Below, one piece after another: positions 1 through 52,585 of a DNA stretch of 64,000 nt (position 1 is its first letter; each line of letters starts with the position of its first letter). Origin of the DNA: a virus (lineage: Duplodnaviria; Heunggongvirae; Uroviricota; Caudoviricetes); IMG/VR virus record IMGVR_UViG_2711768056_000005; one strand, given 5' to 3'. The notes beneath the pieces are model-generated. The model did no database searches and was not told where the DNA came from. It saw nothing but the letters and a program-made list of their open reading frames with translations. Position numbers and translations under genes: made by a program.

Positions 1-333
1 AGACTGATTCTGAACAACCACCAGCTCCGATTCCTGAACTGAAGGTGCATGAATTTTTTCTGATTTAACGTTAGTTGCTTTCATTCTGTGTGCCTCCTTG
101 CGTGCTTCGGCTGCGACGGTTGCGTAATTCAGATGACCCTGTTCGAGCAGGTATTCGCGGATATCAGACAACAGGATACGGTGAACCGCGTTCTTGTCCT
201 TTCTCCGGTAAAGTTGTTTGGTGATCATGAAGTAGTTGGCAATAACGCCTGGTATATCCCTGGTACTGATACAGGCAGTGTGCTGTTCAATTGCCTCGAT
301 CATCTCTTCACGGGTGACTAATGACGTTCTCAT
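1..333 (-). CDS. Ant-like antirepressor, N-terminal 111 codons; the gene runs off the window start
   Basis: Minus-strand ATG at 333-331 gives MRTSLVTREEMIEAIEQHTACISTRDIPGVIANYFMIT..., clearly homologous by eye to the N-terminus of the 347-aa Ant at 50993..52036. Start overlaps the stop of the icd-like ORF (ATGA), as in the second copy. No stop before position 1. Confidence 0.6.
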   Translation of the reverse strand, partial: MRTSLVTREEMIEAIEQHTACISTRDIPGVIANYFMITKQLYRRKDKNAVHRILLSDIREYLLEQGHLNYATVAAEARKEAHRMKATNVKSEKIHAPSVQESELVVVQNQS

Positions 334-551
334 AGTCCCTCCTGAGCAGAAGCGTTAACAGGGAGGCACCAGTAACTGAGAGAATTGCGTGAATCAGTGG
401 AAAAACGGGCAGAGAAAATACATGGGGCGTCAGGAAGCTGAGAGCGGGCCTCATCTTCTGTTGGTGCAATAACGAAGTGATAGTGACGTTTTTGGCAGGA
501 GTAAAAGCGCCAGATAAATTCAGGATGAGTTGGGGTAGGGATAGTAGCCAT
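330..551 (-). CDS. Icd-like small protein (73 aa), paralogue of 52033..52254
   Basis: Internal Met of track ORF 330..893 gives MATIPTPTHPEFIWRFYSCQKRHYHFVIAPTEDEARSQLPDAPCIFSARFSTDSRNSLSYWCLPV, near-colinear with the 73-aa ORF upstream of ant. RBS CTAAGGAGG precedes the ATG at 551. Confidence 0.6.
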   Translation of the reverse strand: MATIPTPTHPEFIWRFYSCQKRHYHFVIAPTEDEARSQLPDAPCIFSARFSTDSRNSLSYWCLPVNASAQEGL

Positions 552-589
552 ATTGGCAGCCTCCTTAGACGTTGGTATGTAACCACCGC

Positions 590-720
590 AGAAGAGACCA
601 ATCTTGCTGGCGGTGGACTGTACGGAGTTGGCCTTACTGGCGTCCAAGGTAACCAGCCTACCCGAAGGTAGCCCCATACAGCCCACCATTGTAGAGGTGT
701 GCGTGTACGCCGATACAAAA
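590..720 (-). ncRNA. Possible c4-like antisense regulatory RNA of the second immunity module
   Basis: Non-coding stretch between a C1-operator match (870..886) and the icd-like RBS. Contains short hairpins (CTACC-CGAA-GGTAG) and a 7-nt segment (GCGGTGG) complementary to sequence by the icd-like RBS. Position mirrors c4 in the full module. Boundaries not determined. Confidence 0.25.
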
Positions 721-869
721 AAAGACGCGAGCGGCGTCTGTATCGCCTTAGACTTAAGCGGGAGGCCAATCCCGGCACCCGTTTTAATGAGGTGCCTGAT
801 AAGCATAAACCGAAAATGCCACAAGGCGCAAGAGGTCAGGTTCAATGTAACATCGGTAGCTAAAAAACA

Positions 870-886
870 CAATTTATTAGAGCAAA
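870..886 (-). promoter_or_regulatory. C1 operator match (15/17 to ATTGCTCTAATAAATTT), 4 nt downstream of the pacB stop
   Basis: Minus strand reads TTTGCTCTAATAAATTG. Positioned to control minus-strand transcription into the c4-like/icd-like/ant-like module. Confidence 0.55.
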
Positions 887-889
887 TAT

Positions 890-2374
890 TCATTCATTAA
901 GCCATGCCAGAGCTTCATCAACCTGCGCTTCGTCTTCGACGCTAAGCACTTCATCCTGGGGAACATAATCCGCCAGCATAGCGAAACAATATGTATCCCA
1001 ATGGTCTGGTGAGTGCAGGTTGAGTTTTTTCTTCATATCCTCCTTACTCATCACCTTCCATTGACCTGCGGAGTTAATCCCTACAGGGATTTTCGACGCT
1101 TCCTCAATAGTTTCATTACCCTTATCCAGTCTCATACGACCAGATTTTACGGCCTCTGCGGCTTGAACATTGGCATAAGCACGTTTATCAAAGTACAGGC
1201 TCTTATCTTCACGGCTATGCATCTTTTTACCCCAGCGTATACGCTGTACGGTAATACCATAATACTCGTACATCAGATCCGCCGTTGCTTTACCCAGGCC
1301 ATCGCCGTCTATCGCTATGGTGATATTGGGGAATCGCTCAGGATTACATTCTGCGAAAATTTTGGCGGCAAGCTGCGTTTCTGTAACGTCTGTGTATTCC
1401 AGCATTCGATAGTTGATTACACGGCGTTTATTTCGCTGGCCGGACACCATCATGATATTGATAACGGACTTATCCCGTCCCGTACCACCAGCAACGTCCA
1501 CACATGCAAGCCAGCCCCATCCTTTGGCAATCTTGACTTTCCGCCGCGTTGCACGTTCAACCTCATCACGTCCAAGAAGGAAGCCATCCTGTGATTTAGG
1601 GAATAGGCCGCGTACCTTAATCATGTACATAGGGTTATCACGCCCGCCGTACTCCGCCAGCTTCATTTTGATAAATGCTGGCGTTACCAACGGTGATTCC
1701 TCACTGTTAAGCGTGATCGCCGTATAAACGCCATCAGGGTTACCAGGACGCTTGGCCAGTTTATGGTGTGTATCGTAGAAATAGCCGCTTGGGCGTGTAG
1801 GCTGTGACAGCAATAAGATGCGGTTATCCTGTCCGGTAAGAGCACCGGTGATGATACCGAAAGCTCTATCACTGACACCGGAGGCTTCATCGATAATATA
1901 CAGAAGATGATCTGCGTGTTCACCGGCGAGAGCTTCTTCACTTCCCAGACGAAAGCCCTTCGGTACTACAGTCCATACACCTTTACCAGTAATCTCATAG
2001 AAAGCGGTTTCTGTCAGAACAAAATAATCAGCAAGCCATGGGAAACGGCTGGTGGCAGTAGCCCAGTTTATCTTGATGTACTTGAATATACCGGTCATTA
2101 CCTGCTGAATTTTGTTCGCAACGATAATGGCACAGGCACCTGGATACATGATTATGAACAACATGATCATGATAGAAGTCATGTCTGATTTCCCGGTACC
2201 GTGACCAGACGAAACAGATGTCTTGCTACCCTGTTCCTGCACAGACTCAATAATCAGATCCTGCTGCCAGGTAGGTGTTTTGCCGAACAAAACATCAGCG
2301 GCAGCAATCCAGTCATAACGATATAGCGCCACCAGCTCGCGCCAACGTGGATCCGTTACGCAACTTCTGGCCAT
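890..2374 (-). CDS. pacB: Terminase large subunit PacB (494 aa)
   Basis: 494-aa ORF whose start overlaps the pacA stop (TAATG). Size and position match P1 pacB; terminase ATPase/nuclease-like content. Confidence 0.88.
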
Positions 2375-3567
2375 TAATCATCATCCCCGTATAGCTTGCG
2401 GGTAACTTCTTCGTCTTCCTCCTCGTCTTCGTCCAGGTCTTGTTCCAGCCATGGGTCGTTTGATACACCTTCAGTATCAACATCTCCATAACCGCCTGTA
2501 TCAACGATATCGGCGATTTCTTCCCTACGCTGCTCAATCCACAATGCGGCATCGGCGCGGCGGTTGGCGGCCCGTTCTCGCGCAACTTTGTCCAGATCTT
2601 CAAGAGAAGGACCACCGACGGCAGTTTGCCTTTCCTCATCATCGGTATTGGTCTTAGGAGCACGCAGATCGGCTTTGATTTGCTCCAGCATCAGGGGCGG
2701 CACTTTCCCGCCATGCGCCTCGATAAATTCAGCTGCTTCCAGCACTGACCAGTTATTTTCACGCTTTCGTTCGTATGCCAGCTTAACAATGCCAGCTTGC
2801 CCCATAGACAAAGCGTGCTTTTCCGCCTCCCGGCTTTCTTTTCGATAGTTATTCCGGATGCTGTAAATGGTGTTGATCAGACTGCTTATCTGCGCGGAAC
2901 AGCTGTTTAGCATGCTCGCGATACGGTATTCAGGCGGAGTACCTTCATCATCGGCTTTTTGCTGATCGCGCATTTCCTGCACCAGGCGAATACACGTATC
3001 CCTGGCGTTCTCCAGCATAAGGAGATGAGAAAGAGACTTTTCCAGAAGAGTGGTTTCCAGAACATCGGCCCCGGACCGACGCAACATAGCGCGCGCGGCC
3101 TTCCGCGCTTCAACGTTATCTATCAGGTAATCGCCAGCTTCGAATTCAAAGCGTTCACCATCATCATCCAGGGTGTCGCGTTCCAGGCGATCACGCAAGG
3201 TCCGGTGGGCACGGGTGATCACGTCATGATCATCAGAACGATCATTTATGCGCTTATTTTGGCGCTTCGCATTCTCGACTGCGACACTGACAATGGCATT
3301 AACCCTTTGTTTTTCTGCTATTTCAGCCGCAATGTGATCACCGGAATGTTGATCATTAGAGTGATCAATGATCATGCTTTTTAGTGGCTTCCTGACTGGC
3401 TTATTTGGCTTGCGGCTGTCCGCTGTCCTGGTGTCTTCTTTGAAGGCACGGAGATAACGACGTGCGGTATTAGGGTTAAGATTAAACTCGGCGGCATACT
3501 GTGCGATGGTGTAACCACCATCTCGCGCCAGGCGAGCAAAATTCTTCTTGTGATCGTCCCAGGTCAC
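2374..3567 (-). CDS. pacA: Terminase small subunit / pac-recognition protein PacA (397 aa, GTG start)
   Basis: 397-aa ORF with an N-terminal helix-turn-helix-like region and an acidic C-terminus; carries the TGATCA hexamer clusters of a P1-type pac site; RBS AAAGGAAG before the GTG. Confidence 0.85.
3216..3374. promoter_or_regulatory. pac: pac packaging site: two clusters of TGATCA hexamers (Dam GATC sites) inside pacA
   Basis: Hexamers at 3216-3221, 3227-3232 and 3239-3244 (CGATCA), then four at 3335-3340, 3350-3355, 3362-3367 and 3369-3374, about 100 bp apart. This is the 3+4 arrangement known for P1 pac. Confidence 0.7.
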
Positions 3568-49152: not shown

Positions 49153-49998
49153 TTACCCTCTGAATCCTGCCGGTATACCCCATTGTTCGTTATCTTTATT
49201 TTTGGCTAAAACCGCATTAAGAGCTTCGTTTACCGTCATGCAATGCGGCAGATTATCGAAGTTTGATATCCCGCCAATATCAGGAGAACGCTTGTTCTTC
49301 AGGAAAGCATATTTCCGCGAAGCCGCCTCTACTTTCTGCTTGAACTCATGTTTTTGAGCGCGTTTTTTGGATAACCGCAGATTGTCTGCCTTTGCTTTTG
49401 CCTCAGCGATCCAGGAAGTCAAATTTTTGAGCCTGGTCGTTCCGGCACCGCCGGAAACTGATCTTTTTGTTTTTTTAATTTGTGACTTCTTATTCTTTAT
49501 TGCCACGTCATCCTGACAGGGGGAGGGGGTATCATTTTGACATGGGGGTGTGGATAAAAAATTAAATAAAGCCAATGTCTTAGCGAGAACAGCTTTAACC
49601 TTGGTTGCCGCTGAAGAGATCTTTAATTTGCTTTCAATCAGCGCATTTTTGGCTTGTTGTGCGAAGGCCAAAAAGGATGGTGTAAACCGGTACAGGTTAG
49701 CGCGACGTTCATGGTGATCGCCGATAACAATCTCTACAGACAGAATTCCTTTGTTTACAGCTTCACGGAATGCACGAACGACGGTTGATTGGCTATAACC
49801 AGTTTCTGCCGCGATCAGGCGGTGAGGCTTGTGAATGAAGTATTCACTGGTTGTTGCCGCGAGATTTGCACATTGCGACAGGATATGCCCGGCGCTACGG
49901 GATAGACCGGAGTGTGTTACAAAGCAGGCCAATTCATAGCCAGAAAAAGTAAAATCGCTCATCGTTATACAGCTCAGGAAAGTGACTTTAGCCAGCAT
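49153..49998 (-). CDS. repL: Lytic replication protein RepL-like (281 aa; start may be the internal ATG at 49962)
   Basis: Directly downstream of kilA in the C1-controlled operon. Confidence 0.55.
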   Translation of the reverse strand: MLAKVTFLSCITMSDFTFSGYELACFVTHSGLSRSAGHILSQCANLAATTSEYFIHKPHRLIAAETGYSQSTVVRAFREAVNKGILSVEIVIGDHHERRANLYRFTPSFLAFAQQAKNALIESKLKISSAATKVKAVLAKTLALFNFLSTPPCQNDTPSPCQDDVAIKNKKSQIKKTKRSVSGGAGTTRLKNLTSWIAEAKAKADNLRLSKKRAQKHEFKQKVEAASRKYAFLKNKRSPDIGGISNFDNLPHCMTVNEALNAVLAKNKDNEQWGIPAGFRG

Positions 49999-50027: not shown

Positions 50028-50828
50028 TTAGCGCGTTGCCGCGACAGGTACCAGCACACCAGCATCAAGCAATCGCTTCATAAGCCACTGCTGACCTTTG
50101 CCGGTTATACGAGTCGTGAAAGAAATCCTGCTTCCATTGCTTGTATCGATCACGGTTTCTTTGAGGGTGAAGTACCCACGGGATATGTATTCTTGTTTTG
50201 GGACGTTCCTGCGCTCACCGGTTGCGATCAGAATTCCGTTATCACGCAACCAGGTGAAGAGATAGTTTTGGCCCAGGCCGAGCACTTTGGCATAGTTGCC
50301 GATTAGAACCCCGCTGGCGGTAGCAACGCGTTCGGCAAATTCGACTTTAGGGGCATCCAGAAGCATTTTTTGCTCCAGCCGTTGCTTTTGCTCTGCCAGA
50401 TCGGCAGCCAAACGGAGAGCTTCAGGGAGACTCTGCGGAATAGCAGGTTGTAATCTTCCGGCTCGATAGTCGATAAATGTCTGGTTTACCTTCAGCCGAA
50501 ACGCGGGAGAAATCCAGCCTGCGTACTCCACTGCGAGCAATTCATGGGCAAAAGTGCCGCCGCCACGGCCTTCGAACGAAACTATGCAATTCTGCATAGT
50601 TTCTTTTTCAAGCTCTTCGATGAGCTGTTTAGCTGACAGCGTTCTTAGCCATTGAGCTGGCGCTTTATGGGCACCGAGTCCGCTCGCTCTGTGTAGAGCA
50701 TTAAGGTTGTAACGGCCAACGCGGTCGGTCGTAATTTCAACACCACAAATAACGGGCAGAGTGGTTGAAGGATCGACATTTTGATGAAGGTTTGATATAT
50801 TCATATCCGCATTGAATGTTTGTTGCAT
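50028..50828 (-). CDS. kilA: KilA (266 aa): KilA-N domain plus a C-terminal domain shared with Ant
   Basis: N-terminal domain (...RYNLNALHRASG...) of KilA-N type; C-terminal 140 aa colinear with the Ant C-terminus; preceded by an operator. Confidence 0.75.
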   Translation of the reverse strand: MQQTFNADMNISNLHQNVDPSTTLPVICGVEITTDRVGRYNLNALHRASGLGAHKAPAQWLRTLSAKQLIEELEKETMQNCIVSFEGRGGGTFAHELLAVEYAGWISPAFRLKVNQTFIDYRAGRLQPAIPQSLPEALRLAADLAEQKQRLEQKMLLDAPKVEFAERVATASGVLIGNYAKVLGLGQNYLFTWLRDNGILIATGERRNVPKQEYISRGYFTLKETVIDTSNGSRISFTTRITGKGQQWLMKRLLDAGVLVPVAATR

Positions 50829-50992: not shown

Positions 50993-52036
50993 TTAACCTA
51001 TTGCTACTGGTTTTAACAAACCAGCATCAAGTAGCTTGCGAGTTAACCACTGCTGGCCTTTACCCGTTAATTGGGGCGTCAGCCGTATCTGGTAGCCATT
51101 TTCATCATCCAGCACCACTTCTTTCACCGTGAAATACCCCGCGTTGATGTACTGTTGGCGCGGTACGTTTTTGCGCGCTCCAAAAGCCATGAGAATGCCA
51201 TTCTGGCGCAACCATGAGAAAAGGGCGTTTTGCTTAAGTCCAACAACCTTTGCAAAGTTCCCGATCAGGATTCCATTGGCCACTGATACCCGGTCGGCAA
51301 AATCGACTTTAGGGGCTGCGGCCACCAGCTGTTGTTCCAACTGCATTTTCTGTTCTGCTAACTCGGCAGCCAGGCGTAGGGCTTCTGGTAATGTCTGGGG
51401 GATCGATGGGGTAGGGGAGTTTGCCTGCTGTAATTCTTCCAGTTTGTCGATCAGCGAACGGCGGACCGCTTTTGACTCGCGCGCGGCGACTCGCAGGGCT
51501 TGTTTGTAGGTCATGGTTATGACAACCATAGGCGTACCGCCACCTGGCGGCACGGTTGCACTTTTTGTGTAACCGTCCTCACCTTCTAATTCGTCGAGTA
51601 TTTTTTCGATGAATTTGTTGTTCCGAACCTCTGGTTCCCCACATAACTTACGCGCTTCATTGACCATCTTTAACAGTGTCTGGCTGTCGATTGTGTCTCC
51701 AGTGTTGGAGATAACATTCACAGCTGGTGATGGCGTAGCTGAAGCAACAGGTGCTGGTTTTTCAGCATTCAAATTATTACCGGTCATTCTGCGTGCCTCC
51801 TTTCTCATTTCTGCTGCCACCGTTGCGTAACGTAGACGTCCTTGTTCAATCAAATAATCCCTGATCTCGGCTATCAGTAGCCTGTTGATCACAGCCTTAT
51901 CTGTTCGGGTATAAAAACGTCTGGTTATCATGAAATAGTTGGCAATTGCGCCGGGGATCTCCCGTGTCGGCATACAGGTTGTATGCAGGGCGATCGCTTC
52001 GGCTATTTCATTACGGGTGACGAGAGGTTTTTTCAT
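50993..52036 (-). CDS. ant: Antirepressor Ant (347 aa)
   Basis: Start overlaps the icd stop (ATGA); C-terminal KilAC-type domain; immediately downstream of icd and the c4 region. Confidence 0.8.
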   Translation of the reverse strand: MKKPLVTRNEIAEAIALHTTCMPTREIPGAIANYFMITRRFYTRTDKAVINRLLIAEIRDYLIEQGRLRYATVAAEMRKEARRMTGNNLNAEKPAPVASATPSPAVNVISNTGDTIDSQTLLKMVNEARKLCGEPEVRNNKFIEKILDELEGEDGYTKSATVPPGGGTPMVVITMTYKQALRVAARESKAVRRSLIDKLEELQQANSPTPSIPQTLPEALRLAAELAEQKMQLEQQLVAAAPKVDFADRVSVANGILIGNFAKVVGLKQNALFSWLRQNGILMAFGARKNVPRQQYINAGYFTVKEVVLDDENGYQIRLTPQLTGKGQQWLTRKLLDAGLLKPVAIG

Positions 52037-52254
52037 AAATCCCCCTGAACGTCGGCAGAGAAGGGGAGGTTCCAGTAACTAAGTGAATTGCGCGAGTTAG
52101 TTGAAAAACGGGCAGTAAAAATGCAGGGGCCATCAGGCAATTGAGAGCGTGCTTCGTCTTCTGTTGCTGCGATGACGAAGTGATAGTGGTGTTTTTTACA
52201 GGAATAGAAACGCCAGATGAATTCTTGGCGTGCGCAAGGATTGGCATTAACCAT
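52033..52254 (-). CDS. icd: Icd (73 aa), small protein translationally coupled to ant
   Basis: 73-aa ORF MVNANPCARQEFIWRFYSCKKHHYHFVIAATEDEARSQLPDGPCIFTARFSTNSRNSLSYWNLPF; size and position as recalled for P1 icd. Confidence 0.7.
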   Translation of the reverse strand: MVNANPCARQEFIWRFYSCKKHHYHFVIAATEDEARSQLPDGPCIFTARFSTNSRNSLSYWNLPFSADVQGDL

Positions 52255-52289
52255 AGTTACGGCCTCACAATCAGGTTTAACAACCTGCT

Positions 52290-52400
52290 ACCCGCTGCTA
52301 AACAGGTGGCAGGACGTGACGGGGTTAGCAGACTGGCGATTGTGAAACCAGCAGGCCGAAGCCTCCCCATCACGCCCCACCATAATTTGGGCGTAACGCG
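52290..52400 (-). ncRNA. c4: c4-like antisense repressor RNA region of the immunity module
   Basis: Non-coding stretch between the operator at 52569 and icd; GATTGTGA at 52338-52345 is complementary to TCACAATC at 52265-52272 beside the icd RBS. Boundaries not determined. Confidence 0.4.
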
Positions 52401-52568
52401 GTTTTACGGACACAAAAATACCGCAATATCGGATATCTGCGGCTGTCCGCACAATCATTCAGGCTGCTAAACCCGGTCGCAGAATTTGCTACGACGGCGA
52501 AACTATAAGCCTGAACGATTAAAAGGTCAATATGATGCGAAAAGATAGCATTCGCGACTTAAAAATAC

Positions 52569-52585
52569 AAATTTATTAGAGCAGG
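52569..52585 (-). promoter_or_regulatory. C1 operator match (15/17) upstream of the c4-icd-ant operon
   Basis: Minus strand reads CCTGCTCTAATAAATTT. Confidence 0.6.

Follow-up and report, generated by a model that had tools for sequence, protein, structure and literature searches.

What stands between pacB and c1 in a P1-like phage-plasmid that carries a complete ImmI immunity module elsewhere in its genome? We addressed this question for positions 1-890 of a 64,000-nucleotide stretch of DNA from the IMG/VR virus record IMGVR_UViG_2711768056_000005 (Caudoviricetes); this whole stretch is called the window in the following. A preliminary description of the same DNA had reported a second, diverged c4/icd/ant-like immunity module at this place. 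We find that window 1-890 contains the regulatory half of a 1.7-kb accessory cassette of the RCS47 lineage of P1-like phage-plasmids, together with the initial third of its effector gene, and consider it highly likely that this cassette is a second antisense lock on an antirepressor. All elements of the cassette in this region are read on the minus strand, leftwards to position 1.

The central element is a C4/CI-family antisense RNA at 606..693 (minus; Rfam RF01695, 75.9 bits with a gathering score of 45). The region had been described as non-coding and placed like c4, and it is indeed a true C4 RNA, whose minimum free energy (MFE) fold matches the family structure. The second hairpin loop of this RNA carries the recognition element b' (CCUUGGACG, 649..641), and 3' of the b' hairpin lies the single strand a' (AGGCCAA, 634..628). 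Both have targets in the mRNA that follows. The target a2 (UUGGUCU, 601..595) has 7 bp of complementarity to a', and the target b2 (CGUCUAAGG, 571..563) has 9 bp of complementarity to b' and overlaps the Shine-Dalgarno (SD) sequence AAGGAGG of icd (566..560). The decoy targets a1 (UUGGCCU, 769..763) and b1 (GUCUAAGG, 753..746) lie inside the leader RNA described below. The P1 record NC_005856 has the corresponding a1, b1, c4, a2 and b2 among its annotated features. The code of the cassette is UUGGYCU for a and GUCUAAGG for b.

Related loci were obtained by scanning IMG/VR with the Icd protein, which gave 79 loci with Icd 95-100% identical. The leaders of these loci show two architectures, IsrK+C4 and a1b1+C4, and contain 11 distinct combinations of a' and b', five of the IsrK type at the pacB-c1 site and six in ImmI. 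In every one of the 11 alleles complementarity is complete, between a' and both of its targets (a1, a2) as well as between b' and both of its own (b1, b2). The a and b elements have been recombined among the alleles, with three a types and three b types at the pacB-c1 site; the allele L030 has CCUUUGAC as b' and GUUCCAA as a'. Furthermore, the C4 scaffold shows compensatory changes at 15 of 28 pairs across 7 homologues. Because of the covariation in 11 alleles, the compensatory C4 pairs and the conservation of the operator-like and promoter-like elements, we regard the sequence comparison as strong evidence that the cassette is a working antisense system under selection. Whole-molecule RNAduplex comparison of each C4 with each leader was uninformative, as all energies were large and intramolecular structure was ignored, and a MAFFT alignment of both C4 RNAs was structurally unsound as a seed for a covariance model. 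Rfam scans and anchored pattern extraction were used.

The cassette opens with a C1 operator-like 17-mer, TTTGCTCTAATAAATTG, at 870..886 (minus). The preliminary description had listed a C1 operator match here, and the site agrees with the consensus at 15 of 17 positions. It begins 3 nucleotides past the pacB stop codon, in the position taken by Op51/Oc4 in P1 ImmI, an analogy drawn from the Oc4 annotation in P1 record NC_005856. The window has 12 such operator-like sites, where 0.43 would be expected by chance, and all 61 related loci keep the present one, with 2-3 mismatches. A candidate C1-controlled promoter, TTGTGT-17-TACATT (844..872, minus), abuts the operator-like site and would correspond in position to P2c4/P51a of P1, again by analogy with the annotation of NC_005856. 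A second candidate, the putatively constitutive promoter TTGCGC-18-TATGCT (802..831, minus), would be the analogue of P51b, PisrK and P4 PLE. This element is also kept in all 61 related loci and reads TTGCGT/TATCCT in the most divergent ones. Its predicted start, at about G795, coincides with the first position of the match to the Rfam IsrK model.

This match is an IsrK/seqA-type leader RNA at 718..795 (minus; RF01394, 60.8 bits with a gathering score of 50). According to a terminator scan the leader has an intrinsic terminator, with its stem at 739..723 followed by a U-run. The decoy a1 is exposed in a hairpin loop of the predicted leader fold, and in the MFE fold of the read-through leader a1 and b1 pair in cis with a' and b'. 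Both a1 and b1 are present and covarying in the cassette; the motif that carries them scores as IsrK and not as c4-a1b1. Rfam keeps IsrK (RF01394) outside its C4 clan despite this a1b1 role.

The two coding parts were confirmed as previously described, an Icd-like open reading frame (ORF) of 73 aa at 551..330 (minus; NCBIfam NF033153, 49.8 bits) and the 5' end of an ant paralogue at 333..1 (minus). They are coupled by ATGA at 333..330, where the TGA of icd overlaps the ATG of ant. Both products had been called homologous to those of ImmI but diverged, which agrees with an identity of 79% between the two Icd proteins and of 59% over 93 aa between the N-terminus of the Ant paralogue and ImmI Ant1 (E 3e-40). 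Position 1 cuts the ant paralogue, leaving 111 of its 372 codons inside the window and a further 786 bp outside. In order to read beyond position 1 we used pE2-2 (NZ_CP048917), which is 100% identical to window 1-1400. The full gene has 372 codons in pE2-2 and 371 in RCS47. In the full pE2-2 protein the N-terminal 95 residues are Ant1-like, and Pfam places ORF6N (PF10543) at residues 116-202 and KilAC (PF03374) at residues 260-361. The KilAC domain is about 90% identical to that of ImmI Ant, and the last ~424 bp of the gene are 81% identical in DNA to ImmI ant. Additionally, an internal SD and ATG (ATG at 84..82, minus) would provide an Ant2-type start at M84; the arrangement AAGGAGG-N7-ATG is present in both ant copies, almost base for base. 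Nested Ant1/Ant2 starts and Icd coupling as in ImmI are predicted from these conserved sites.

The cassette follows the context gene pacB (890..2374, minus), upstream of which lies pacA (3567..2374, minus). P1, P7, SJ46 and phiW39 align to the window only from 892 onwards and are thus without the cassette; the stop codon of pacB is the exact point where homology with cassette-free P1-like phages breaks. The match to P1 stops there as well, in keeping with the expectation that canonical P1 has no such module after pacB. Beyond the window edge, the order in pE2-2 and in phage RCS47 is ant paralogue, c1 and coi, the last two as in P1. In pE2-2, c1 lies ~820 bp past position 1, convergent with the 372-aa ant gene, which ends 32 bp from the c1 stop codon. 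In the alignment, 1707 bp stand in place of the 24-bp pacB-c1 spacer of cassette-free SJ46, and homology breaks exactly at both stop codons. The P1 order pacB - c1 - coi is preserved, with the cassette placed between the stop codons of pacB and c1. An absence of c1 from this DNA had been noted. It holds within the window, where tblastn found no C1 homologue (best E 2.8), but the gene is missing because the window edge falls before it, and c1 and coi are found directly beyond this edge in pE2-2 and RCS47.

The complete c4-icd-ant-kilA-repL module that had been reported elsewhere in the window was confirmed at 49.15-52.6 kb. The canonical ImmI module proper spans 50993..52585 on the minus strand and consists of an Op51-like site (52569-52585), a1b1 (52456-52508, with the c4-a1b1 motif RF03163, which was matched only in this copy), C4 (52302-52387), icd (52033-52254) and ant1 (50993-52036), all on the minus strand; kilA is found at 50028-50828 and repL at 49153-49998. 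This ImmI copy carries the P7 code, UUAGCAG for a and GAUUGUG for b, and its C4 and flanks are 98.9% identical to P7. The P1 code differs (UUGACAG and GUUAGUG) and is a third code. Further ImmI alleles are found among the related loci, including recombinants which join a P7 a with a P1 b.

The a/b code of the cassette has no element in common with that of the P7-type ImmI copy of this genome, and therefore the element is predicted to carry two orthogonal antisense locks on two antirepressors. No cross-complementarity of more than 5-6 bp was found between the a'/b' of one circuit and the annotated a/b sites of the other in the two circuits of the window. The different antisense specificities that had been presumed are thus borne out by the codes, by this lack of cross-complementarity and by the covariation. 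The two copies have 70-81% DNA identity in the coding parts and none in the RNA part. The statement that the RNA regions are unrelated is correct for the primary sequence, as blastn gives no match between them and the C4 scaffolds agree at only ~50% of positions, but both RNAs belong to the C4 family and have the same fold, with the compensatory pairs given above.

By analogy, the cassette most likely works like ImmI of P1 and P7. Transcription would start from the C1-operator-controlled promoter, from the conserved constitutive promoter, or from both, and the transcript would pass the IsrK-type leader with a1, b1 and the terminator, then the C4-type RNA, a2/b2, icd and ant. C1 would add transcriptional control through the operator. 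The processed C4 RNA would pair by a'/b' with a2/b2; icd would remain untranslated because b2 covers its ribosome-binding site, and the ATGA-coupled ant would therefore be silent. In P1, pairing of C4 also brings premature, Rho-dependent termination. The short terminated leader with a1/b1 may pair with C4 in cis or in trans, for which IsrK of Gifsy-1 gives an experimental example, and may compete for it. If the lock fails, Ant would be made and would inactivate a repressor, presumably C1. Such failure could follow from entry into a cell without the cognate C4 allele, from loss of C1 or from titration of C4. The RNA elements up to their pairing are supported by sequence and covariation, while promoter use, processing, the mechanism of repression and the target of Ant are what we infer from them.

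Several points speak against this interpretation. The window allele has one G-U pair each in a2 and b1/b2. Single a/b duplexes barely beat shuffled sequences (0.00-0.3 of the shuffles were as good), and as these statistics are marginal the case rests on comparative covariation. Both candidate promoters are below the 9-of-12 cut-off in a consensus promoter scan. The terminator between a1b1 and C4 could halt most transcripts ahead of C4, and given this terminator the regulatory logic may resemble IsrK or P4 more than P1. Finally, the middle part of the Ant paralogue (ORF6N) is unrelated to the middle of P1 Ant, and the paralogue could target something other than C1.

Comparison with known systems shows where the cassette agrees with ImmI and where it departs from it. 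The order Op51 - a1 b1 - c4 - a2 b2 - icd - ant1/ant2 and the strand logic are those of P1/P7 ImmI. Common to both are the operator-like site at the 5' end, a C4 whose a' is single-stranded and whose b' lies in a loop, target sites that occur twice and of which b2 covers the SD of icd, a 73-aa Icd, an ATGA-coupled ant with an internal Ant2-type start, and a C-terminal KilAC domain. In contrast, the cassette is located between pacB and c1 and ends at ant, whereas ImmI follows sim and is continued by kilA-repL. The leader of the cassette is of the IsrK type (RF01394) with a strong terminator and not the c4-a1b1 motif (RF03163), and the C4 scaffold, the a/b code and the middle of Ant, which is ORF6N in the cassette, are different.

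The leader points to a second system, the isrK-orf45/STnc1160-anrP locus of Gifsy-1. There, IsrK is a short terminated RNA, and read-through gives an isrK-orf45-anrP transcript with the stable processed RNA STnc1160 downstream and a small ORF coupled by AUGA to the antirepressor gene; translation is activated by IsrK supplied in trans, and the authors remark on the likeness to seqA/CI of P4 (PMC4825925). The cassette likewise has a terminated IsrK-family RNA, from which read-through would lead into a structured RNA complementary to it, and in both systems the stop of a small ORF and the start of the antirepressor gene share an AUGA; in Gifsy-1 the antirepressor needs this small ORF for its translation. 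Furthermore, the cis pairing of a1/b1 with a'/b' in the MFE fold of the cassette resembles 'structure A' of PMC4825925. The systems differ in that the small ORF of the cassette is a separate Icd-like gene downstream of C4, whereas in Gifsy-1 it is an overlapping 45-codon ORF, and in that the cassette has an upstream C1 operator-like site and a P1-like plasmid as host replicon.

A third likeness is to chromosomal P4-like satellites, in which leader and C4 scaffold have 83-88% DNA identity to the cassette and the same a' element, AAGGCCAA. They also have an Icd-like ORF downstream and the Pfam Ash signature over the RNA region. The order of these chromosomal elements is integrase - helix-turn-helix gene - AntA/B - [isrK-C4] - Icd-like - primase. 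Two loci with the IsrK+C4 scaffold were seen in E. coli chromosomes, L086 (3137-4165) and L087 (3342-3650). The satellites differ from the cassette in having other b' loops with matching b1/b2, and a primase operon downstream where the cassette has an antirepressor. An eta-like long frame as in P4 is unconserved in the cassette. Taken by its sequence, the cassette appears to be a mosaic, in which a P4/IsrK-type regulatory leader is joined to a P1-type icd-ant. Direct cross-repression by chromosomal P4-like satellites sharing the full a'+b' code was also considered and was rejected, as the two satellites examined share only a'.

The cassette is found in the phages vB_EcoM-673R5 (99.3%), RCS47 and JL22 (95.2%). 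PLSDB has 261 plasmids in which at least 80% of window 1-1400 is matched, a stretch made up of the cassette and the neighbouring 3' part of pacB. Among 5426 complete E. coli genomes, 255 have at least 80% of window 1-890 and 541 have pacB; the cassette is thus present in about half of the P1-like elements of this set. The window's own allele, taken as an exact a'+b' 41-mer, occurs in 132 genomes, at 129 plasmid and 5 chromosomal places. The only chromosomal place inspected is an integrated P1-like element.

Among the other explanations, the one that survives best keeps the RNA lock as described and has the Ant paralogue act, instead of on the element's own C1, on repressors belonging to co-resident elements (P1-like elements of other alleles, lambdoid prophages or P4-like satellites), which would make the cassette a tool of induction or competition between elements and not a second self-immunity circuit. 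A central ORF6N domain in place of the middle segment of P1 Ant is compatible with such a role, but the first 95 aa and the last 140 aa clearly resemble Ant1, the C-terminal part with the 81% DNA identity to ImmI ant already given. The 3' end of c1 is identical with or without the cassette, so that there is no coupling to a c1 allele; nevertheless, the C1 operator-like site in the promoter ties the cassette to the C1 regulon. The similarity of leader and C4 scaffold to chromosomal P4-like satellites (83-88%, with a' in common) also speaks for this explanation, yet the exact a'+b' code is almost confined to P1-like elements. A precedent does exist, as AnrP acts on the antQ pathway in Gifsy-1. 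On balance we consider this explanation unlikely; the Ant paralogue would most probably inactivate C1.

A far less probable explanation is that region 552-893 codes for an Ash/eta-like N-terminal extension of Icd that is translationally coupled to pacB. In P4, translation of the nested eta/kil genes from the late transcript overrides immunity. A 187-aa ORF (893..330) is in frame with icd and has an ATG that overlaps the TGA of pacB, but a stop codon closes this frame 6 codons ahead of the icd ATG in each of the 35 loci that have one of the other four alleles, and most loci of the window's own allele have internal stops. The terminator scan found no terminator between pacB and the cassette. A Pfam Phage_ASH match of 44.5 bits falls exactly over the IsrK/C4/a2b2 region, and the Prokaryotic Genome Annotation Pipeline (PGAP) calls an 'ash family protein' pseudogene at the cassette; what is conserved here, however, are RNA pairs and covarying a/b sites and not codons. 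We therefore think that at this site the 'Ash' annotation most plausibly arose from translating RNA genes. The 187-aa ORF was rejected as a P4 eta-like immunity-overriding frame, the frame being unconserved across the alleles.

The notion of an assembly artefact or of a decaying, functionless duplicate, for which there is only the a priori suspicion raised by a duplicated module beside the window edge, can for practical purposes be dropped; the preliminary description had already argued against an assembly duplicate. Identical junctions occur in independent complete genomes, among them three phage genomes and upwards of 250 complete plasmids. The ORFs are uninterrupted, purifying selection is evident from the covariation and the compensatory changes, and the copies are only 70-81% identical in coding DNA with no match in the RNA part.

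The cassette is already in the databases. The RCS47 record labels a gene 'ant' at this site, and PGAP labels an Icd-like protein and a KilAC antirepressor. Venturini et al. mention the insertion in passing, naming RCS47 (PMC6906374). We found no paper on the C4/IsrK RNAs of the cassette, their specificity or their alleles, the original RCS47 paper being outside the literature searched, and in the JL22 paper the cassette is unmentioned. What is new is the RNA anatomy, the P4/IsrK-type leader and an allele series with three-way covariation.

In E. coli and Salmonella, P1-like phage-plasmids are often vehicles of resistance genes, among them those for extended-spectrum beta-lactamases and mcr, and immunity partly governs whether two P1-like elements coexist, exclude each other or induce each other. 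A second antirepressor under an antisense lock, for which there are at least five recognition alleles, is present in about half of the natural elements, and heteroimmunity typing by ImmI (P1 versus P7) alone is therefore incomplete. The cassette joins three systems that are usually handled apart, P1 c4, Gifsy-1 IsrK and P4 CI, and it shows that RNA genes lie beneath the label 'ash family protein' at sites of this kind. The general picture of how such circuits work is unchanged by the cassette.

We put forward with some hesitation, as a possibility of limited probability, that the RNA recognition codes of P1-like phage-plasmids may form a combinatorial 'immunity barcode' spread over two loci and that the second antirepressor may target a repressor other than C1. 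If this were true, the barcode, made up of at least six ImmI and at least five pacB-c1 alleles, would decide which co-infecting or co-resident relatives induce each other, and, with a target other than C1, a single induction network would connect P1-like plasmids with P4-like satellites and further prophages.

Some variants among the related loci may be added. In IMGVR_UViG_2609459791_000005 (locus L055, at ~2477) a deletion fuses the equivalent of window 1787, inside pacB, to 575. This locus has lost the 3' end of pacB, the operator, IsrK, C4 and a2, and keeps b2/SD-icd-ant, so that its antirepressor would be without an antisense lock. The 42-kb record IMGVR_UViG_2698536372_000019 (L011, L077 and L082) has three icd modules with three C4 codes within ~22 kb, one of the IsrK type, one of the P7 type and one of a further type; this points either to an element with three locks or to two P1-like plasmids that were assembled together. 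In vB_EcoM-673R5 (L001, 8560-9333) the annotation gives the ant paralogue a length of only 257 aa ('Roi') and breaks c1 up into short ORFs, which suggests frameshifts, sequencing errors or a defective immunity region in this record. The window also has three tRNA genes, at 28395-28467, 30471-30543 and 30549-30621 (minus), as expected for a P1-like genome.

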